Source: a virus
Reading direction: 5' to 3' (one strand)
Length of the DNA stretch: 64,000 nt
IMG/VR virus record: IMGVR_UViG_3300032174_000075
Location: 10,821-74,820 of that record
Positions 12,790-63,559 of the stretch are shown piece after piece. The notes beneath the pieces were generated by a model. The model was not told the origin of the DNA. It searched no databases and saw nothing but the letters and a program-made list of their open reading frames with translations. The translations under genes and the position numbers were made by a program. Every line of letters begins with the position of its first letter. Position 1 is the first letter of the stretch.

Positions 12790-13830
12790 GTGCGATACTA
12801 TTCCATCATTATCAAAAACTCCGATGCCTCTATCTACCGGCCTCCATCGCTTGCTTCACTGAAGCTCCCCGCAAGTTGGACTAGTTTTGTCAACAACCAG
12901 ACCATTCCCGGCGCGCTCGATATTCAAATAGAGGCTTATCTCGCGGCGTTTAATGCGCCAGTGGCCGGAACATTTGTTCGCGTATGGGGAATCTCTATCG
13001 AGGAGATAGGCCAGGCTAGTGACCTTCGAGGGAAAAATATTCAAGTTTTTGCCGGGATGCAAAAGGGACTCCCGCTAGCGAATCCGGCGCAGTCAGGTCT
13101 TATCCTTCAAGGCTATATCTTCAAGTCGTTTGGGAACTGGGTTGGCACAGACCAGACATTGGATTTGATTGTTGTGGCCGGCGATAGTCCGTTCGGAACT
13201 GGGTCTAAGGCCTCTCCAAAAAACATAATCCATCTGTGGGCCAAAGGCACGCCGCTTTCAGAGGCGATTAAGTCAACGCTGACGACCGCCTTTCCGGGCT
13301 ATGAAGTGGATATTAGCATAAACCCAAAGCTCGTATTGACAGAACAAGATACTGGCTACTACGAATCTGCAACACAGTATGCGCAGTATATTCAAGCTCT
13401 CAGTAAGTCGATTATAAACGACCAAGCTTATTTAGGGGTTTCGATTGTACTGAAAGAAAAAAAATTCACCGTCTATGACGGGACGACAAAAACAACGGCC
13501 ACGACCATAGATTTCAAGGACCTAATCGGGCAGCCAACTTGGATAGGCCCGCAGGAAATTCAGGTCAAAACTGTTATGCGGGCAGATATCGCGGTGGGGG
13601 CTTATGTCAAGCTTCCGGTTACGCAAACGACGACGACCTCGGAAGGGGCGCTTCCGGCCGGTAACGCACCACGGGCAAATAGCATCTTTCAAGGGGAGTT
13701 TTTCGTAAAGAGCATGAGCCATTTTGGCCGGTTTCGTCAGCCTGACGCCGCAAGCTGGAATACGATACTTGACCTCGTGGCGCCTCCGGGTGCGGCGGGG
13801 ACAGGTGACGACCTCGGAAGGGGCGCTTAA
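12790..13830 (+). CDS. Baseplate hub protein
   Basis: 346 aa, DLIGQPTW motif, precedes spike. Confidence 0.65.
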   Translation: MRYYSIIIKNSDASIYRPPSLASLKLPASWTSFVNNQTIPGALDIQIEAYLAAFNAPVAGTFVRVWGISIEEIGQASDLRGKNIQVFAGMQKGLPLANPAQSGLILQGYIFKSFGNWVGTDQTLDLIVVAGDSPFGTGSKASPKNIIHLWAKGTPLSEAIKSTLTTAFPGYEVDISINPKLVLTEQDTGYYESATQYAQYIQALSKSIINDQAYLGVSIVLKEKKFTVYDGTTKTTATTIDFKDLIGQPTWIGPQEIQVKTVMRADIAVGAYVKLPVTQTTTTSEGALPAGNAPRANSIFQGEFFVKSMSHFGRFRQPDAASWNTILDLVAPPGAAGTGDDLGRGA

Positions 13831-14498
13831 TGGCTGACAACGCTCAGAAAACGCCATTTGCCCAATCCATTCAGACCTTCGTCGAAGGCAAGGTCCAGGA
13901 CGGCATACAGCTACTTGGCAAAGCTTTTCCCGTCTCCATCGTCACGATCAACGATTGGTCGGCAGTCGTCAAATTCGAGATGAACGCAGCGCCGTTCACG
14001 TTGCCGAACATAGAAGTTCCACTTGCCCTCTCCGTGTACGAAAGGCCGCCGCTTCAGGTGGGGGATAAGGGATGGGTCCGTGCTGCCGACGTTCGATTGG
14101 GCGGCGTTACCGGGCTAGGCAGTGGCGTTCCTGGACTCACACTGCCGGCAAACCTCTCCGCGTTGGTGTTTGAGCCCATATCGAACATCACTTGGGATGC
14201 CCCGCCAGACAAAAATGCGTATCTCATTCAGGGACCGAACGGGTTCATTTTCCGCAACGTCGCCAACGACTATTCGATCATCGGCAACGGCTCGCACATT
14301 CAAGTAAAATACGGAGGGCGGACTTTCACGGTAGATGGAGCGCAGCTTGTAATGGCTTACGACTCCTCAAATTCCGTGACCGTCGATTCGTCCGGTGTCG
14401 CCATCCTGGGAACCTTGACGATCAACGGCGCCCCCTATCTGGCGCATGTTCATTCCGACGTTACGAGCGGAACCGATTCGACAGGTCCGGTGGCATGA
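13830..14498 (+). CDS. Baseplate central spike
   Basis: C-terminal HxH metal-binding tip (LAHVHSDV..G...TGP). Confidence 0.8.
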   Translation: MADNAQKTPFAQSIQTFVEGKVQDGIQLLGKAFPVSIVTINDWSAVVKFEMNAAPFTLPNIEVPLALSVYERPPLQVGDKGWVRAADVRLGGVTGLGSGVPGLTLPANLSALVFEPISNITWDAPPDKNAYLIQGPNGFIFRNVANDYSIIGNGSHIQVKYGGRTFTVDGAQLVMAYDSSNSVTVDSSGVAILGTLTINGAPYLAHVHSDVTSGTDSTGPVA

Positions 14499-15100
14499 TT
14501 TTGAGGCACAAAGTCTGCACTAAATGCAAGATAGAAAAGTCCTTAGAAGAGTACGCCAAACACGCGTCTCTTAAAGACGGGAGACAAGTTCAGTGCAGAG
14601 CATGCCACAAAGCATACAATGCTCAAAACAAAGCGCGGATCGCAGCACAGAGGAGAGATTGCTATCGGAAGAATCCTGACAGGATTAAAGCGAAAACTAG
14701 GGAATGGTATCGCAACAACCGACGGGCGGCTATTCAGTATCAGGCCGAATATCGCCGCGAGAACGCGGCGTCTCTTCAAGAGAAGGACGCAAAACGGCAT
14801 GCCAAGAATAAGGCCGCTGCAAAAACGTGGCGGCATAACAGAAAGGCCAGGGTCAGAAATTCCGGCGAAAGGCTTTCTCCGGATATCGTGACAAAACTTT
14901 TGTCCGAGCAGAATTTCAAATGTCCGTACTGCCTTGGAGACTTGCGCGTGGTCGGACATCATATTGATCATTATGTTCCGATCATTCTTGGCGGGGGAAA
15001 TTCGGATGATAATGTTCAGCTTACTTGCCCGCTTTGCAACCTAAGAAAGGGAAGCAAGCACCCGATGAATTTTTTACCAAAGATTGGGTCGTGTCATTAG
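14495..15100 (+). CDS. HNH homing endonuclease
   Basis: N-terminal CxxC..CxxC; CPYC..HIDHYVP...GG.N...NVQLTCPLCNLRK. Confidence 0.9.
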   Translation: MILRHKVCTKCKIEKSLEEYAKHASLKDGRQVQCRACHKAYNAQNKARIAAQRRDCYRKNPDRIKAKTREWYRNNRRAAIQYQAEYRRENAASLQEKDAKRHAKNKAAAKTWRHNRKARVRNSGERLSPDIVTKLLSEQNFKCPYCLGDLRVVGHHIDHYVPIILGGGNSDDNVQLTCPLCNLRKGSKHPMNFLPKIGSCH

Positions 15101-51520: not shown

Positions 51521-52432
51521 CTAATCAGTCCAACTGACCGTACCGACAGGCGTTGTCCCGTTCGCTTCGTGCTGCGCCATTTCTTCGATGTAGGCGAGCG
51601 CCCAATCATCCGGGATCGCGCCGTAGTTCTGCTGCGGCCAGCCAGGATGCGACATGTCGTGGATCAAAGAGGCCGCTCCAGCAAAACCGTATTTGTCTTT
51701 CAGCTTCCATCCGGCGGCACCAGCCATGTTCACGAGATGGCCAGCCGTGCACATTGGCGTGTTGCAGATATTCGGCTCCGGCGTCGGGCGTTCTGGCCCG
51801 AAGGTCGATTGCTTGAATGCCCGCTTCTTCGCTTGAATGTCAGCCAGAAGATGCGTGTAGGGTTTTTCGAGGACAGGGATATCTCCGAACGCCGCTCTCA
51901 GGGCGCTCGGGGTCCAGCCCGCCGCGATCAGGGCGCTCGGGGTCCAGCCCGCCGCTCTCAGGGCGCTCGGGGTCCAGCCCGCCGCTCTCAGGGCGCTCGG
52001 GGTCCAGCCCGCCGCTCTCAGGGCGCTCGGGGTCCAGCCCGCCGCGATCAGGGCGCTCGGGGTCCAGCCCGCCGCGATCAGGGCGCTCGGGGTCCAGCCC
52101 GCCGCTCTCAGGGCGCTCGGGGTCCAGCCCGCCGCGATCAGGGCGGAGAATTGGCGGCTCGCCATCAAAGCCAATTCGTGCCGTGTAAATTCCTTCGCCA
52201 TTGTCATTCCTCTCTCGCCTGAGTGGGCGGGGGGGGGGTAGGCTAGAACGTCGTTGTCGTTATATTTTCCGGCTGGGCATGTCGTGAAGAAATGCTCCTC
52301 GACGCCACGCCTCATAACTGCCATGTTGACAATCGCGTCGGCGTTCTGCTCGCTCTTGTTTCTTTCAAGAACGCGGACGTGATGCGGCGCCCTGATCTCC
52401 ACTTCGATCACGTCAACCATGGACATCTTCAT
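51521..52432 (-). CDS. Repeat-containing protein (probable second start at 52207)
   Basis: AAGWTPSAL(R/I) repeats; internal GAGG RBS before ATG at 52207. Confidence 0.65.
   Translation of the reverse strand: MKMSMVDVIEVEIRAPHHVRVLERNKSEQNADAIVNMAVMRRGVEEHFFTTCPAGKYNDNDVLAYPPPAHSGERGMTMAKEFTRHELALMASRQFSALIAAGWTPSALRAAGWTPSALIAAGWTPSALIAAGWTPSALRAAGWTPSALRAAGWTPSALRAAGWTPSALIAAGWTPSALRAAFGDIPVLEKPYTHLLADIQAKKRAFKQSTFGPERPTPEPNICNTPMCTAGHLVNMAGAAGWKLKDKYGFAGAASLIHDMSHPGWPQQNYGAIPDDWALAYIEEMAQHEANGTTPVGTVSWTD
51891..52145. repeat. 30-bp coding tandem repeat, 8.5 units
   Basis: GCCGC(TC/GA)TCAGGGCGCTCGGGGTCCAGCCC with no spacers. Confidence 0.98.
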
Positions 52433-55241: not shown

Positions 55242-55673
55242 ATGGGCTGTAGTCGCGTTCATAATTGGAATGACGCTCGGATCGAAAAGCTCAAAGAGCT
55301 ATTCGCTGATGGCCTGTCGTTCTCGCAAATTGCTCGGGCTTTAGGTGGTGTCACGCGGAACGCATGCATCGGGAAAGTTAGACGCCTTGGCCTGGGTGGC
55401 GACAGAAAGAAGCCTGAGAGAGTTCGCCCGCGCGCAAACTTCGAGCCTGCCATGCAACCACGCCCGATCAAGCCTCGCATCATCGAAGGTATCGAGCCTG
55501 AATCTCTCAAACTCTCCATCACTGAGATATCCGACCGCACCTGCAAATGGCCCAGCGACGATTATCCCTATACCTATTGCGGTCACAAGCCTAAGCTCGG
55601 CTCGCCGTATTGCGAGTATCATTTCCAGAAATCGCGCTCGGTTCCGTATGGGCCAAGGGAGAAGACGGCGTGA
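55242..55673 (+). CDS. gcrA: GcrA-like transcriptional regulator
   Basis: W....IEKLK.L..DGLS.SQIA..LGGVTRNACIGK..RLGL; CKWP..CG....GSPYC..H. Confidence 0.9.
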   Translation: MGCSRVHNWNDARIEKLKELFADGLSFSQIARALGGVTRNACIGKVRRLGLGGDRKKPERVRPRANFEPAMQPRPIKPRIIEGIEPESLKLSITEISDRTCKWPSDDYPYTYCGHKPKLGSPYCEYHFQKSRSVPYGPREKTA

Positions 55674-56518: not shown

Positions 56519-56875
56519 ATGGCCGAGGGTGAGAGTCTGCCCCCCAGCACTCCGCCGCAGGCTGCGTGGCTCCGAATCGCGGCCGAGGAGGCGCAGCGTT
56601 CCGGCCTGAGGCTGGCTGGCGTCCTGGGTGGCTCTAAACAGCGGCCCTACGTCTATGCCCGCTGGCGGGCTTGGCAGAGGCTTCAGGACGAGTTCCCGAG
56701 GGCGTCTCTCGCTGGCATGGGAAGAACTACCGGCTTCGATCATTCCTCCGTGCGCTGGGGCCTGATGCGGGTGAGCGGCGGTGACCCAGCCCTTGCGGCA
56801 CCACGCATTCGACAGATAGCCCAGTTCCTCCCACGACCGCTTCAACGCCCAATCCCGATTCGCCCGACGCTGTGA
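56519..56875 (+). CDS. DnaA domain IV-like HTH protein
   Basis: AR..AW.....SL..MG....DHSSV. Confidence 0.7.
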   Translation: MAEGESLPPSTPPQAAWLRIAAEEAQRSGLRLAGVLGGSKQRPYVYARWRAWQRLQDEFPRASLAGMGRTTGFDHSSVRWGLMRVSGGDPALAAPRIRQIAQFLPRPLQRPIPIRPTL

Positions 56876-57623: not shown

Positions 57624-58049
57624 ATGAGCGCTGTTCCTTGCAACGGATGCCGAACATGCTGTCGTGATCAGCTTGTGCCATTGCTTGAAGAGGACGAGCC
57701 GAACATCTCTCACTACGACGTTGTGATTCATGAGAATAATGGTCTCATAGTGAAGGCGCTCAGAGAGAAACCGAATGGCGAGTGCGCGCACCTTGGCCCT
57801 GCTGGCTGTGAGATATACGAGCATCGCCCCATCGTCTGCCGCTCCTACGATTGTCGCAAGCAGTTCAAGATCATGTCGCGGAATGAGCGGCGAGGCTTTA
57901 CCAATAGCCAGATTTGGAAAGAGGCTCGCGCTCGGCTTCACACCCTTGATGCAGACGATCTTGCTACATTGCAAAAATACAACGGTTTAGCATCAGACGG
58001 GTTTAAAAAAATGCTGCGGCCTGTCGTTCGGAAGAATGACGCAGCATGA
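57624..58049 (+). CDS. YkgJ/CxxCxxCC-family cysteine-cluster protein
   Basis: CNGCRTCC...C..L...GC.IYE.RP.VCR.YDC. Confidence 0.85.
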   Translation: MSAVPCNGCRTCCRDQLVPLLEEDEPNISHYDVVIHENNGLIVKALREKPNGECAHLGPAGCEIYEHRPIVCRSYDCRKQFKIMSRNERRGFTNSQIWKEARARLHTLDADDLATLQKYNGLASDGFKKMLRPVVRKNDAA

Positions 58050-58054
58050 CTCAC

Positions 58055-58610
58055 CCCCCTTCCCTTCTCTCCCCACACCGCCCGTCTCTAAGACGATTGA
58101 GCGGCCAGGAGGGCTTGGAAGCACAACAGCCGCCCATCTTTGAGAAGACAAGCGGCTGTGTTGCGTGCGTTCGGTTGAACGAGCAGAGGAGCCATGACAA
58201 GCCCCTCGGCTATACCGCATATAGCGGTCGCTTTCAACCCCGCGCGCAATCCCATGTGTTCTCAACGGGAATGCTTGGCCTCTTTGCCGGGATAATCGCT
58301 GGGGGAACTTCCTCGTAAGCCTGGCCGCCGTGCTCGCGCCGCGAGGTGTCAGCACACAGACCAGAAACCCGAGACTTCCGCCCCCCCGACTGGGTCCGTG
58401 CCCTGAGGGATATACCTGCCTGTAAAACCCCCTGATCCGGTCTCGGAAGGGGAGGCGATTGGGCCACGATACGGTCGGCAGAGAAAACAGCGGTTTGAAA
58501 GCGGGTCGAAGGGCTTTGAGGGGTAATTTTATTGCTCTTAGTCCTTTTTGGAGTGCCGTCATCCAAACCTCGGGCAACCCAAGTCCCCAGGGGAGGAAGA
58601 CGGAAGTAAC
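58055..58610 (+). ncRNA. Putative large structured RNA (~550 nt)
   Basis: More than 12 nested helices with G-U pairs and GNRA loops on +; see findings. Confidence 0.6.
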
Positions 58611-58746
58611 TTCATTCCGCGCCTATCCCCCCTCGACAAGTACGCGGGAAACCGCGATTTCGGGGGGTTAGGTGTACACTCCCTCCCCTCACTGGGTCAC
58701 GCGTGTTAGCAAGGCAGGGCTTAGCTACTCTTACATAGAGCGGCCC

Positions 58747-59808
58747 ATGCCCTGGATCGAGCCAGAGTATCTAAACTGTAGCGTCTATCTCTATCCCTCA
58801 GAAGCCGAGGCAGAAGAAGGCAAAAGGATCGGCGGAAGCGGATTCTTGATCAGCATTACGCTTGCGCAGGATCACCAGCACGGCGGCTGGGTCTCTCAGC
58901 AAATGGTCTGCGTCGTTACAAACAAGCATGTGGCTGACGCCGGCAATAAAGTGGTTCGCGTAAATACCAAGAGTGGCGGCAAGGACACCATCGCCCTTGA
59001 TCACGCTATCTGGTATGACCATTCTGAAGCTGACTTGACGTTGTGCCCAATTGGCTTGGACGTTGAACATCAATTTTCCTGCGTCTCGACCGACGCCCTC
59101 ATAACTGAGAAAATTATTTCTGCCTTCGATATTGGCCCTGGCGATGAGACATTTATGGTCGGGCGGTTTGTCAATCACGAAGGCCGTCAGCGAAATACGC
59201 CAAGCCTGAGATTCGGCAATATCGCCCAAATGCCATTCGAGCCTATTAAAATGAATGGGCTCCCGCCGCAGGATGCTTTCTTGGTAGAGACGCGCTCTAT
59301 CGCTGGGTACAGCGGGTCTCCAGTCTTTGTATATCTCCCGCCGCAGCCCGACTTATCGAAATACCCTACGGTGCATGCCGCTGTCCTAAAAGGTGAAATG
59401 AAAATACCGGGGATCAACCCAAAGCGAATGGCATTCGACGTTCGGTTGGGGCCATGGGTGCTTGGAATAGATTTCTGCCATATCCACGACAAAGAACCGG
59501 TGCTGAGTAGAATCACCGAAACCCCAGTTTCCCCGGAATGGTACGTCAAATCGAACACTGGAATGGCCGGCGTTATCCCCGCATGGAAAATATTCGAAAT
59601 CCTCAATGGAGATGACATGCGCAAAGTCGTTGGAACCGCGATAAAGATCGCGAGAGAAAGGCTTAGACCTTCTGGCGGCGCTACTCTCGACGTGGCGCGC
59701 GACGAGCCCAAATCTGATCAGAATGGCCCTAACCCCGACCACAAAGAGGATTTCATGCGTCTTCTAGGCGCGGCAGCGAAAGCGAAACCATCAACCGATC
59801 AAACATAG
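58747..59808 (+). CDS. IS passenger: trypsin-like serine protease
   Basis: GSGF, VTNKHV, ADL and GYSGSPV triad motifs. Confidence 0.88.
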   Translation: MPWIEPEYLNCSVYLYPSEAEAEEGKRIGGSGFLISITLAQDHQHGGWVSQQMVCVVTNKHVADAGNKVVRVNTKSGGKDTIALDHAIWYDHSEADLTLCPIGLDVEHQFSCVSTDALITEKIISAFDIGPGDETFMVGRFVNHEGRQRNTPSLRFGNIAQMPFEPIKMNGLPPQDAFLVETRSIAGYSGSPVFVYLPPQPDLSKYPTVHAAVLKGEMKIPGINPKRMAFDVRLGPWVLGIDFCHIHDKEPVLSRITETPVSPEWYVKSNTGMAGVIPAWKIFEILNGDDMRKVVGTAIKIARERLRPSGGATLDVARDEPKSDQNGPNPDHKEDFMRLLGAAAKAKPSTDQT

Positions 59809-60643
59809 AGCGATGACAGTGCCGATTGTTGCGACGATACGAGAACTCGCTGACGTATTTCCAAAGATGCTTTTGGGAAACGTGAATGTGTGTCCCTTTG
59901 ATCGACCGCTTCAATTGCGACCAATGCCCTTCAATGCCGTTCGTGTGGTGGATACCGTCAACCCATTCATCTTTGCTGTGGTTGACCGTGCCGTGCGGGT
60001 AGCCCATCGGTCCAAGGTTCACGTATCCGGGCCATTCGTCCGTGCTGACGACCGCGCCCTTCGCAACGTTCCTCACAACGGCGCGCTCAAGGACATGCTG
60101 ACGGCGGTTCGGGATTGGGCCAGCGACCACGCGACCGTCACGCTGCAACATGCCAAGCAGTGTCGTCTTGTTTTCCATCGCGTTCTCTCTGCCGCGTCCG
60201 GTGTTGCGACCGCCCATCAGCGTTTCGTCAATCTCGACGTGACCGGAAAGCGGGCCAGCCCCGTGCGTGTCTGCATTCGCCATGAGCTTGCGAAGCTCGT
60301 GCGCCATGCGCCACGCCGTCTTGTAGGTGCAGCCGATCTGCCGCTCCAATTCCTTCGCCGCGACGCCGTGACGGGTAGAGGTCATGAGGTACATCGCGAA
60401 GAACCAATTCGTCAGCTTCGTGCTCGACTTGTGAAAGATCGTCCCGGCGCACGGGTAGATATGGTGCCCGCATTCCTGGCAGGCGAACGCCTTGCGGGTG
60501 TTCATGGCGTGAAACTGCGCCTCCGCCACGCCACAGCCCGGACAGGTGATCTTCGTCCCGCCATGCTGGATGTTCATGAGCGCCAGAAGGCAGGCGGCGT
60601 CGTCCGGGAACTGGGCTTGGAACTGCTTGAAAGTATATTTCAT
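59753..60643 (-). CDS. IS1595-family (ISXO2-like) DDE transposase
   Basis: CPGCG/CQECG Zn ribbon; VEIDET / STDEW / TNGIEGHW. Confidence 0.95.
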   Translation of the reverse strand: MKYTFKQFQAQFPDDAACLLALMNIQHGGTKITCPGCGVAEAQFHAMNTRKAFACQECGHHIYPCAGTIFHKSSTKLTNWFFAMYLMTSTRHGVAAKELERQIGCTYKTAWRMAHELRKLMANADTHGAGPLSGHVEIDETLMGGRNTGRGRENAMENKTTLLGMLQRDGRVVAGPIPNRRQHVLERAVVRNVAKGAVVSTDEWPGYVNLGPMGYPHGTVNHSKDEWVDGIHHTNGIEGHWSQLKRSIKGTHIHVSQKHLWKYVSEFSYRRNNRHCHRSMFDRLMVSLSLPRLEDA

Positions 60644-60668
60644 GGCGGCAACCCTCGGTTATGGGGAG

Positions 60669-60697
60669 AGTATGCCCGATGACTTACTTGCTGTCAA
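60669..60697 (-). promoter_or_regulatory. Transposase promoter adjoining the TIR
   Basis: TTGACA-N17-CATACT. Confidence 0.7.
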
Positions 60698-60766
60698 GGG
60701 ATAAACGCGCTTCATTCTGGAAACTAAAAATCGCGGTTTTAGCACCCAATGCCGCTAGGAGTTGAC

Positions 60767-61348
60767 ATGGACATCGCCGCCCTCAATTCGACCATGAAGA
60801 AATATCCCGTCTCGTTTTGCGGGGAAGACAGTATTGCAGACAAGGGCTGGTGCTATGGCGTCTGGTACTGCGGGACCTCGTTCACGAAAGTCAAACTCTA
60901 CGGCCAATACCCTCCGACCTTTCTCAGGCGCGCAATTGCTCTATTTCCTCTCGCCAAAGATGTGCTGCATGCTCCCAGTGGCTCGTTAGAGGGCCTTCCT
61001 ATTGGTCATGTTACGATGGACATGTACGCGGATGACGTGCGTAAACCTATGTTTCAAGGCGATTGTGAAGCTATGCCATTCGCAGACAACGCCTTCGACC
61101 TCGTTTTGAGCGACCCGCCCTATTCTGAGGAAGATTCTCGTCTTTATGGCTGCGCCAAGTTTCCGGAGAAAAAGTTTCTCGCCGAAAGCCGCCGCGTGCT
61201 GCGGCCCGGAGGATACCTTGGCTTTCTCGCCTACCACTATCCGTCCTATCGGCGCGCTGACTGGCGGCTGCGTGGACTATTTGCGGTCGTTACTGGGTTC
61301 TCCCGCCGCACGCGGATGTTCTCAGTATTTGAAAGCACAAAGGTCTAG
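60767..61348 (+). CDS. SAM-dependent amino-methyltransferase (DPPY type)
   Basis: FDLVLSDPPY and RVLRPGG; AGGAG RBS. Confidence 0.8.
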   Translation: MDIAALNSTMKKYPVSFCGEDSIADKGWCYGVWYCGTSFTKVKLYGQYPPTFLRRAIALFPLAKDVLHAPSGSLEGLPIGHVTMDMYADDVRKPMFQGDCEAMPFADNAFDLVLSDPPYSEEDSRLYGCAKFPEKKFLAESRRVLRPGGYLGFLAYHYPSYRRADWRLRGLFAVVTGFSRRTRMFSVFESTKV

Positions 61349-61359
61349 GAGAAGCAGCC

Positions 61360-61776
61360 GTGGGCAACAACCGTCCCTACGTCTGCCCCCTCTACGACAC
61401 AGACTTCCTCGCTCAGTGGCGTGTGTTCACTGCGCCTGAATCGGCGCCAAAATCAGCGAGCAAGAAAGATGCCTGGAAAGCATATGGGCAAACCATCACG
61501 ATCCGTCCCTCTCACACACTCATGCTCTTGTGCATCGAGGAATATCTATGTGACATTCACAAGCGCAAGCAATTCCAGGCTCACCTAGCCACATGGTATC
61601 GCCGCGCAGGATGGGAAGGCTACCTTTCCGATGCTCAATATCGGCTAGACCATCCAGCTCCGAAGATCGTGCCACGCCCATCCTTCAAAGCCGAACCTCT
61701 CACTCCCGAACAGCTCACCCCTAAACGGCCATGGCGGGAGATACTGGCGCAGCACAATTTGGCGAAGGGTAGCTGA
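61360..61776 (+). CDS. Phage replication protein, C-terminal-domain-only
   Basis: F...W.......SKKDAWKAY...HLATW....W resembles initiator C-domains; no N-terminal wHTH. Confidence 0.55.
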   Translation: MGNNRPYVCPLYDTDFLAQWRVFTAPESAPKSASKKDAWKAYGQTITIRPSHTLMLLCIEEYLCDIHKRKQFQAHLATWYRRAGWEGYLSDAQYRLDHPAPKIVPRPSFKAEPLTPEQLTPKRPWREILAQHNLAKGS

Positions 61777-61777
61777 G

Positions 61778-62263
61778 ATGGGCGATACACGGCGTTTCGA
61801 CCTATTCGCGGACTTGATCACCAGCCAAGTTCCGGGGGCATCTTCATTGGAGATAGCCGACGTTGCCGGCGGCAAGGGATATTTACGGGCCGCTCTCCAT
61901 CAACGCGGCATTCGCAGGGTAACGACATGGGACAAGCGACGCAGCATGCCAGCTCACCGTCCGGGCTACAGGCGGGCATGGTTCGATTACAAGAGCGCGC
62001 CAGATGACTACGGTCTCGTGGTCGGGATGCATCCCGACGAAGGGACCGACCATATCGTCATGTATGCCGCGCTGCACCGGATTCCATTTGTCGTCTGCCC
62101 TTGCTGTGTGAAGCCGAGCGCGGCACAATTTTCCGGGCAACGAGATTACCGAGTGTGGTGCTCACACCTCGCGGCTCTTGCTCGTGGCCTAGGCATGCGG
62201 GTTGATGAGTTCTCCCTGAGAATGCACGGATGCTCGACTGTTTTTGTGGGCCGTCCGAGGTAG
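61778..62263 (+). CDS. Class I SAM methyltransferase-like protein
   Basis: IADVAGGKG and VVGMHPD...PFVVCPCCV. Confidence 0.7.
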   Translation: MGDTRRFDLFADLITSQVPGASSLEIADVAGGKGYLRAALHQRGIRRVTTWDKRRSMPAHRPGYRRAWFDYKSAPDDYGLVVGMHPDEGTDHIVMYAALHRIPFVVCPCCVKPSAAQFSGQRDYRVWCSHLAALARGLGMRVDEFSLRMHGCSTVFVGRPR

Positions 62264-62836: not shown

Positions 62837-63559
62837 ATGTCTGAAAGCATGGAAGTCACTGCCATCAAAATCGAGAAACGCCTTTGTGCCGCGTTGCTCA
62901 GGCAATGGGCGCCGTCCGGAATGAGTGTTGAGTCTCTTTCCGACGATGCGGCCAGCGAAATTGAAAGGTTGCGGGCGGGAAAGAAGACCTGGTACGTCCT
63001 CAAAGTGGAAGGCGGCTACGAGCTGTCCGTTGCCAGCGATCTATGCCGGCACGATTACAAGGCGTGCGTGCCCAAGGTTTTCGAGCGTCGGGTTGTGGGC
63101 CGGGAAGCATATCCGATTCCGTATCCAAAATGGTCCGGATATGTTTTCGTCTGTGTCTGCCCAAAGGCAGGGCAGAACTACCGCGATGTTCTAGCCACGC
63201 CCCACGCAATCGACTTCGTCTCGCTGGCATTCGACAAGAGCGAGTGCGCCCTTAATCCTTCCGCGATTTCAGAAGAGATGATCGCGGGGTGGGCCATGGA
63301 CGAGCACATTGACTGGCACGAGGCCACGAAGCCCCCGAGCAAGGCACGCAAATGCGTCTATGCCTCTGGGGACAAAGTCAGGGTCATCGCTATAGGCCAT
63401 CCCTACGAAGGCTGGGAGGGAACCGTGAAAGACGCCCGTCCTGGAAGCGCTAACATCTACCTCGGTCCTAACAATTTCCCTGTACGCGTCAAGGAAGACG
63501 ATATAATGCTGGTGTCCGTATTCCAGCAGCGGGCTTCTCAGAGCAATGTCAGGGCATGA
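62837..63559 (+). CDS. NusG/RfaH-paralogue antiterminator
   Basis: NGN (WYVLKV..G.E, GYVFV) plus KOW (GDKVRVI..GHPYEG.EG.V). Confidence 0.8.
   Translation: MSESMEVTAIKIEKRLCAALLRQWAPSGMSVESLSDDAASEIERLRAGKKTWYVLKVEGGYELSVASDLCRHDYKACVPKVFERRVVGREAYPIPYPKWSGYVFVCVCPKAGQNYRDVLATPHAIDFVSLAFDKSECALNPSAISEEMIAGWAMDEHIDWHEATKPPSKARKCVYASGDKVRVIAIGHPYEGWEGTVKDARPGSANIYLGPNNFPVRVKEDDIMLVSVFQQRASQSNVRA

Follow-up and report, generated by a model that had tools for sequence, protein, structure and literature searches.

The stretch of viral DNA analysed here (the window, 64,000 nucleotides (nt)), from a soil prophage, comprises bases 10821-74820 of a 74.8-kb IMG/VR provirus record that is cut at its right end. 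Between a gene for a CxxCxxCC protein and an insertion sequence (IS) it contains a non-coding spacer (58050-58617, + strand). A conserved structured core within this spacer (58124-58292, +) is probably, on the basis of sequence comparison and predicted folding, a small uncatalogued two-state RNA element read from the + strand. The favoured reading, which was assigned a probability of roughly one in three, is that this core is a small cis-acting two-state regulatory RNA in the early operon of the phage.

The original prediction, made from the letters of the window, had held that 58055-58610 contains no convincing gene, folds densely and constitutes a single + strand RNA of about 550 nt that might serve as a replication origin. 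Coding potential was scored with a 3-periodic second-order Markov model trained on 53 long open reading frames (ORFs) of the phage. From ~57900 to 58650 the score was negative in all six frames, against +2 to +10 in the flanking genes, so the spacer is neither a gene nor a recent pseudogene. Codon-position GC content was flat in every frame of the spacer (0.58/0.59/0.60; neighbouring genes ~0.58/0.44/0.60), and overall GC content was about 0.60-0.61, compared with 0.53-0.55 in the flanks. At 568 nt (617 nt without the IS) the spacer is the largest gene-free stretch of the phage. Fold z-scores of 58050-58617, calculated with 100 dinucleotide shuffles, were -3.2 for the + strand and -3.8 for the - strand. 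Thirty-two segments of the same size from this genome gave a mean of -0.65 (standard deviation 1.0, minimum -2.3), and the spacer was the most structured segment sampled by about 2.5-3 standard deviations. The 169-nt core alone gave z = -3.9, with 0 of 200 shuffles equally stable. Both the lack of a convincing gene and the dense folding were borne out by these scores, and all ten helices that had been listed are complementary where they were placed.

The single 550-nt RNA was not supported. Pair probabilities above 0.8 were restricted to local helices (58126-59, 58160-58250, 58330-55, 58436-47 and 58510-45). A 15-base-pair (bp) closing helix (58059-74/58590-606) reached this level only when the spacer was folded without its flanks. 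Most other long-range pairs had a probability of ~0.1, shifted with the chosen boundaries and differed between the minimum free energy (MFE) and centroid structures. By these models the spacer fold is not one well-defined 550-nt architecture, and conservation was limited to ~170 nt. The rest of the spacer (58293-58617, +), which contains the local hairpins 58330-55, 58436-47 and 58510-45 and the 3' strand of the closing helix with 58059-74, had no homologue in any search; the ~400 nt outside the core may be lineage-specific structure or filler. A scan of the whole window with Rfam 15 at gathering thresholds gave 0 matches, and at E up to 10 only chance-level matches (E of 2.9 or more) were obtained in 57900-58900. 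The scan included riboswitches, GOLLD, ROOL and HEARO, and it agrees with the earlier failure to match RNase P, tmRNA or group I/II introns. Scanning for E. coli-type consensus sites revealed no promoter- or terminator-like site within the spacer on either strand.

Relatives were sought with reference to the host. Host DNA makes up the left end of the record: an msrA fragment (recognised by reading the first bases) and an MgtC/DUF4010 gene. Since the latter is 83% identical to a gene of a Rhizomicrobium metagenome-assembled genome (MAG), the host is, on this sequence evidence, a Micropepsales-type alphaproteobacterium. The first lead was a 36-nt, 92% match of 58254-58289 in genome G020. A covariance model (R1) was built from 58124-58292 and searched over 151 genomes of the host's family; it matched G020 over the full model length with 47.7 bits (E about 1e-8). 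When the non-coding region of G020 was used in a BLAST search, G182, a genome of the host's order, was the sole lead. When this locus was scored with R1, hairpin 1 of the core (described below) aligned, and the invariant 14-mer of the core was seen by reading the sequence. An exact search for the 14-mer in 301 genomes of the order returned G020, G182 and one match in G027, which was rejected as chance (it lies, by sequence reading, inside a crotonase (enoyl-CoA-hydratase)-type gene). The family of the RNA unit has three members: the window, G020 and G182.

Other searches were negative. No homologue of the spacer was found in INPHARED phages (blastn), at 160 viral or metagenome loci encoding CxxCxxCC homologues (blastn and nhmmer), or at the loci of relatives of the methylase encoded past the spacer, where the upstream DNA is a RusA-like gene or other ORFs and no RNA. 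Long gaps at the CxxCxxCC-homologue loci were artefacts of gene filtering (one was a 1111-amino-acid (aa) tail-fibre-like gene); a transfer RNA (tRNA) scan of these loci, and Rfam on ten of them, gave nothing. A 33-nt motif was not found in 401 class-level genomes, three exact or degenerate patterns had no match in viral contigs, R1 had no match over 100 loci, and genus-level searches around G182 and G020 yielded no further copy.

The core is the sole part of the spacer with homologues. At its 5' end, hairpin 1 (58126-58159, +) is predicted with pair probabilities of 0.9-0.98; its outer stem of 8 bp is separated by an internal loop from an inner stem of 4 bp. It reads ACAGCCGC-CCA-UCUU-UGAG-AAGA-CAA-GCGGCUGU in the window, GGGCCGC-CG-UGUU-UGGG-AACA-CCA-GCGGCCC in G020 and GGCCCGC-CG-UGUU-UGGG-AACA-CAA-GCGGGCC in G182. 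Eleven of 11 pairs are kept in all three sequences and none is broken on one side; four changes are double and compensatory (C-G>G-C, A-U>G-C, G-C>C-G and C-G>G-C, the last in the inner stem). The variable multibranched middle domain that follows (58160-58250, +; pair probability about 0.95) is an insertion in the model alignment. It measures 87 nt in the window, 40 nt in G020 and about 78 nt in G182, and its sequences are unrelated, with stem-loops in each. Beyond it lies the invariant 14-mer GTGTTCTCAACGGG (58256-58269, +; GUGUUCUCAACGGG as RNA), identical in the three copies. In the window the 14-mer doubles as the 5' half of a hairpin (58256-74) with three G-U pairs, in which G020 carries one G-C>G-U change that fits the + strand only. 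The conserved tail TTGGCCTCTTTGCCG (58275-58289, +) lies within the 36-nt match to G020; its CTTTGCCG recurs in G182 after an insertion, the tail being CUUUGCC(G). The size of the unit is 120-170 nt.

The apex and 3' half of hairpin 1 (UUGAGAAGAC, 58140-58149, +; consensus UUGRGAASAC) are complementary to the 14-mer. This complementarity is present in 3 of 3 copies, with duplex energies of -12.6, -13.3 and -15.1 kcal/mol. An A/G difference in the helix replaces A-U with G-U, and pairing is kept only in the + sense RNA. Energies of the free fold and of the fold with the long-range helix forced were -72.3 and -67.1 kcal/mol for the window, -52.7 and -51.9 for G020, and -96.8 and -95.3 for G182. 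The two folds are 0.8-5.2 kcal/mol apart in all three copies, and the unconstrained MFE structure of G020 already uses the long-range helix. An RNA switch would be expected to have two such exclusive, near iso-energetic folds of its most conserved segments; the evidence, from three sequences, is suggestive in this respect, but thin. The claim of a + strand RNA was supported for part of the spacer, which has the marks of an RNA under selection: compensatory changes in hairpin 1, and G-C>G-U and A-U>G-U changes, which keep pairing in the RNA sense only. Its supporting argument from G-U pairs is good locally, in hairpin 58256-74, and not overall, because the - strand folds at least as well.

In the proposed mechanism the spacer would be transcribed within the rightward early operon; the orientation of the unit is that of the flanking genes. 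State A would comprise hairpin 1 (58126-59) and the local hairpin 58256-74. In state B, 58140-49 would pair with 58256-65 of the 14-mer and enclose the variable middle domain. Switching between the states would act in cis and set transcription or translation into the methylase gene and the replication-organiser-like gene downstream. Candidate triggers are a ribosome arriving through an ATGA-coupled ORF, RNA polymerase and a host factor. The ORF in question (58046-58318, +; 90 aa) overlaps the upstream stop codon and is either a possible leader ORF or the basis of a rival reading, its coding score being negative. ATG/TGA overlaps (ATGA) into the unit occur at 58046-58049 of the window and at 1439-1442 of the G182 locus (L023). 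These overlaps suggest translational coupling into the unit, and translation entering it from the upstream gene may be part of the setting of the switch.

Several observations weigh against the regulatory reading. A DNA hairpin would produce an identical signal, as hairpin 1 is almost perfectly palindromic, and R1 also matches the - strand (E = 0.018), which has a different and slightly more stable global fold. Hairpin 58256-74 is lost in G182. State B of the window is predicted to lie 5 kcal/mol above state A. Conservation, but no covariation, is seen in the long-range helix, and with only three members no statistical test of covariation applies. Each of the three loci has different genes downstream, so that a regulated target common to them is not apparent.

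The two other copies were examined in context. In G020 the unit lies ~215 nt past a tRNA-Arg(CCG) gene (290 nt for the 36-nt match) and ~1.3 kb upstream of a block of large terminase, capsid, portal and integrase genes. In G182 it lies 1.9 kb past a tyrosine integrase gene. Both loci are integrated elements in the host's order, and Rfam on the two copies gave nothing except the tRNA. When all ORFs around both copies were compared by tblastn with each other and with this phage, no shared protein was found. The absence of a shared protein implies that the unit moves on its own among mobile elements of the host group, and, because the three loci share nothing else, the conservation rests on the unit itself. 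The ~1.6 kb from tRNA-Arg to large terminase in G020 (12972-14640 of locus L021, G020:C30:44000-58723) is without a convincing ORF and looks densely structured beyond the unit.

A bolder form of the regulatory reading, given a modest chance, is that the unit represents an uncatalogued two-state class, portable at the head of gene blocks in unrelated phages and islands of Micropepsales-type Alphaproteobacteria. It could act, for example, in protein-independent antitermination or as a translation-coupled switch, and would sit here inside a larger lineage-specific scaffold.

Comparison with known systems was made on this basis. The unit resembles attenuators and leader switches (trp, pyrBI) in having exclusive 1:2 plus 3:4 versus 2:3 pairings of similar energy in 3 of 3 copies, and in that an ORF coupled to the upstream gene enters segment 1. 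It differs from them in that the 3:4 hairpin (58256-74) is weak, with its three G-U pairs, and is followed by UUGGCCUCUUUGCC; lacking a U-tract, it is not a recognisable intrinsic terminator. The loss of this hairpin in G182, the absence of regulatory codons, and an ORF that is absent or out of frame in G020 are further differences. Cis-acting processive antitermination RNAs, such as putL/putR of phage HK022 and EAR of Bacillus eps operons, are likewise small and structured, and head long phage operons. The G020 copy is upstream of a terminase-capsid-portal block, and this phage encodes a NusG-like antiterminator (62837-63559). However, the unit has no sequence or Rfam similarity to these RNAs, and no counterpart of the NusG-like protein was seen in G020 or G182.

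With GOLLD, ROOL and HEARO the spacer shares its location in a prophage and its GC enrichment, and ROOL is of similar size; but there was no match to them at E up to 10, no tRNA cluster is nearby and most of the length is not conserved. The whole spacer (~550 nt, with dense predicted structure) is also like the ColE1 RNA II pre-primer. Unlike that system, it has no antisense RNA I-type partner or Rom, no promoter (E. coli-type consensus) and no Rfam homology, only 170 nt are conserved, and the unit is found elsewhere away from replication genes. An iteron- or DnaA-box-type phage origin differs from the spacer, which has neither direct repeats nor DnaA boxes and a GC content of about 0.60.

The ORF at 61360-61776 (+) had been described as resembling just the C-terminal part of lambdoid initiators, without the DNA-binding half. 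HMMER, structure modelling and fold matches identified its 138-aa product as a free-standing protein homologous to the middle domain of prophage replication organisers. HMMER, run in full against 1.8 billion representatives, gave 27 relatives. In prophage proteins of 341-386 aa from the host's order, the segment that aligns with residues 12-97 is the middle domain, which is preceded by a DUF1376 or HTH_36 winged helix at the N-terminus and followed by DnaA_N; the shared motif (Y..FE..W..Y ... SK.DA.KAW ... H.ATWLR..RWE) is present. A DnaA_N-like domain is added in longer relatives (8 of 27). The closest seven relatives are of 129-137 aa and share the C-terminal tail of the protein, which thus belongs to a conserved stand-alone subfamily and is not a truncation. 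Within the subfamily (P0014-P0021 and the 138-aa protein) the tail is conserved as PRxSFxAS..P....P.R.aaeILA. Compared with prophage replication organisers, the protein has the middle domain but neither the N-terminal winged helix-turn-helix (wHTH) nor the C-terminal DnaA_N, and carries instead the short tail shared with the seven proteins.

An alignment-based structure model of the protein had a predicted local distance difference test (pLDDT) score of 90.9 (the single-sequence model was poor). Its best viral fold matches were DnaD, replisome-organiser, RepA-like and DUF1376 proteins, with weak E-values. Searches of the PDB by sequence and by fold gave, beyond a weak DnaA_N match, nothing significant, and the protein matched no Pfam domain. 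The lack of a DNA-binding half was thus confirmed, in that the ORF encodes one domain of larger replication proteins with no N-terminal wHTH. The likeness to the C-terminal part of initiators is a fair description, but the domain is the middle one and the protein is not a fragment. DUF1376 and HTH_36 (PF07120 and PF13730) are absent from the whole record, as is DnaA_N. A possible resemblance to Phg_2220_C (PF09524) was dropped because its profile, searched at E up to 1, matched nothing in the record, and a possible resemblance of the ORF at 56519-56875 to DnaA domain IV was not supported. As had been stated, the record contains no recognised primase, helicase or full initiator; no loader was recognised either. 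It stops 2.2 kb past the 138-aa ORF, so replication genes may lie off the contig.

The most far-reaching claim of the original prediction was that a ~550-nt R-loop or primer of the ColE1 RNA II type replaces the DNA-binding half of the initiator. The absence of a recognised initiator, helicase or primase from the record is in its favour, as are the missing wHTH domain of the 138-aa protein and the C-rich and G-rich tracts at the two ends of the spacer. Against it, neither direct repeats or iterons nor DnaA boxes, CtrA boxes or GANTC sites occur in the spacer. In G020 and G182, the genomes of the other copies of the unit, no member of the 138-aa family was found, and no recognised replication gene adjoins the unit in either. 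The conservation of only 170 nt, the standing of the 138-aa protein as a conserved subfamily and the cut right end of the record, beyond which replication genes may lie, also speak against it. Since co-occurrence elsewhere and origin hallmarks are both lacking, an RNA-primed origin is unsupported and was judged very improbable; a functional link between the RNA and the 138-aa protein is unsupported on the same grounds of no family member in G020 or G182. Somewhat less remote, though still quite improbable, is that the 90-aa ORF is a small protein gene and the conserved blocks are the motifs IFEKTSG/VFGNTSG and VFSTG. Both this ORF and the one over the G182 copy start by ATGA overlap, and both motifs are in frame in the window and G182 (with spacing that differs by 21 nt). 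Yet the coding score is negative throughout with flat codon-position GC, and the two blocks are in different frames in G020. G020 and G182 differ, by sequence reading, at all codon positions and not mainly at the third, and two of the differences are compensating stem positions. The middle parts are dissimilar and rich in Arg, Pro, Ser and Gly.

An appreciable, if minor, chance was given to the spacer being non-functional leftover DNA in a decaying prophage with several IS1595 copies, the three-way match being a mosaic fragment spread by recombination and the folds a result of GC-rich composition (0.61 versus 0.53-0.55 in the flanks). This would account for the about 400 of 568 nt without a homologue and for the ambiguous long-range pairs, and IS1595 transposase genes are present in the record at L007:2977-3948 and at 59753-60643 of the window. 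It does not sit well with conservation that is confined to paired segments, which carry compensatory changes, amid sequence that is otherwise entirely replaced, with z-scores outside the genome's own range, or with an IS insertion just past the closing helix and not inside it. The palindromic form of hairpin 1, scored on both strands, and the presence of the unit in integrated elements without shared genes would also suit a DNA element used by unrelated mobile elements, either a single-stranded DNA hairpin (a single-strand initiation or priming signal, or a single-stranded DNA promoter) or a site for a host protein. This was considered unlikely: the G-U positions in hairpin 58256-74 and in the apex/14-mer helix would, depending on the strand, be weak G-T or broken A-C pairs if the element were DNA, repeats or iterons are absent, and the outer stem varies in sequence with complementarity kept, which argues against a sequence-specific operator. 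An independent small RNA gene carried by mobile elements and acting in trans on host or competitor transcripts appeared slightly more doubtful again. A compact (120-170 nt), self-contained unit that moves between unrelated elements, with an invariant 14-mer as a possible seed region, would fit it; the lack of a flanking promoter- or terminator-like site (by the same E. coli-type consensus) and the co-directional position within an operon, overlapped by an ORF coupled to the upstream gene, do not.

The IS beside the structured stretch, which had been removed in the original prediction, was confirmed as an intact IS1595-family element (58618-60709). It is flanked by an 8-bp target duplication (CTTCATTC, 58610-17 and 60710-17), and related inverted repeats form its two ends (CGCGCCTATCCC... 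and the complement of ...GGGATAAACGCG; CGCGyyTATCCC... ends). Its transposase (59753-60643, -) matches DDE_Tnp_IS1595 (PF12762) at 1e-36 and the zinc ribbon PF12760 at 1e-8, and has a good promoter match. A 353-aa trypsin-like peptidase (58747-59808, +; by Pfam) is carried as a passenger, and the 3' ends of the peptidase and transposase ORFs overlap by 56 nt. With the IS excised in silico, 617 nt separate the CxxCxxCC stop codon from the methylase start at 60767. In one DNA sequencing run, probably of the source sample, the spacer was covered by the source contig alone, with no variants and no IS-free form; among the runs listed for the stretch there was one DNA run and no RNA run.

Around the spacer, small early genes are tightly packed in a rightward block. 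Upstream in this block are a GcrA homologue, Zn-finger proteins and then the CxxCxxCC zinc/iron-chelating domain protein (57624-58049, +; PF03692, E = 4e-10). The closest relatives of the last (P0003-P0009, from ENA and Logan) are 50-62% identical, and true homologues of the entire spacer are most likely to be found on their contigs. Downstream are a small DNA methyltransferase (60767-61348, +; phrog_3816, E = 2e-24; relatives at L003-L006), which is the first gene past the spacer and has a Shine-Dalgarno sequence AGGAG at 60757-61, the 138-aa ORF, a second methyltransferase-like ORF and the NusG-like antiterminator. The leftward block encodes RecT, an exonuclease and NinB. The NusG-like protein, near the contig end and co-directional with the spacer, matches PF02357 and phrog_6386 (transcription antiterminator), and no homologue of it was detected in G020 or G182. 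The GcrA cell-cycle regulator homologue (55242-55673; PF07750, 2e-29) is in the same operon as the two methyltransferase-like genes (60767-62263), a combination that hints at epigenetic control of the host. A 303-aa early-left protein (51521-52432, -) has a strong match to the Decapeptide-repeat Pfam family (PF25296, 2e-23) and is otherwise without annotation.

A speculation about 550 nt has in this way been reduced to a 170-nt unit in which the mutually exclusive helices are spelled out. The 138-aa protein defines a stand-alone subfamily of the replication-organiser domain, which is a useful annotation for alphaproteobacterial prophages. If the regulatory reading of the core is true, the unit would add a new family of cis-regulatory RNA, from a soil lineage that has been little studied, and would be a control module that moves between mobile elements independently of protein genes.

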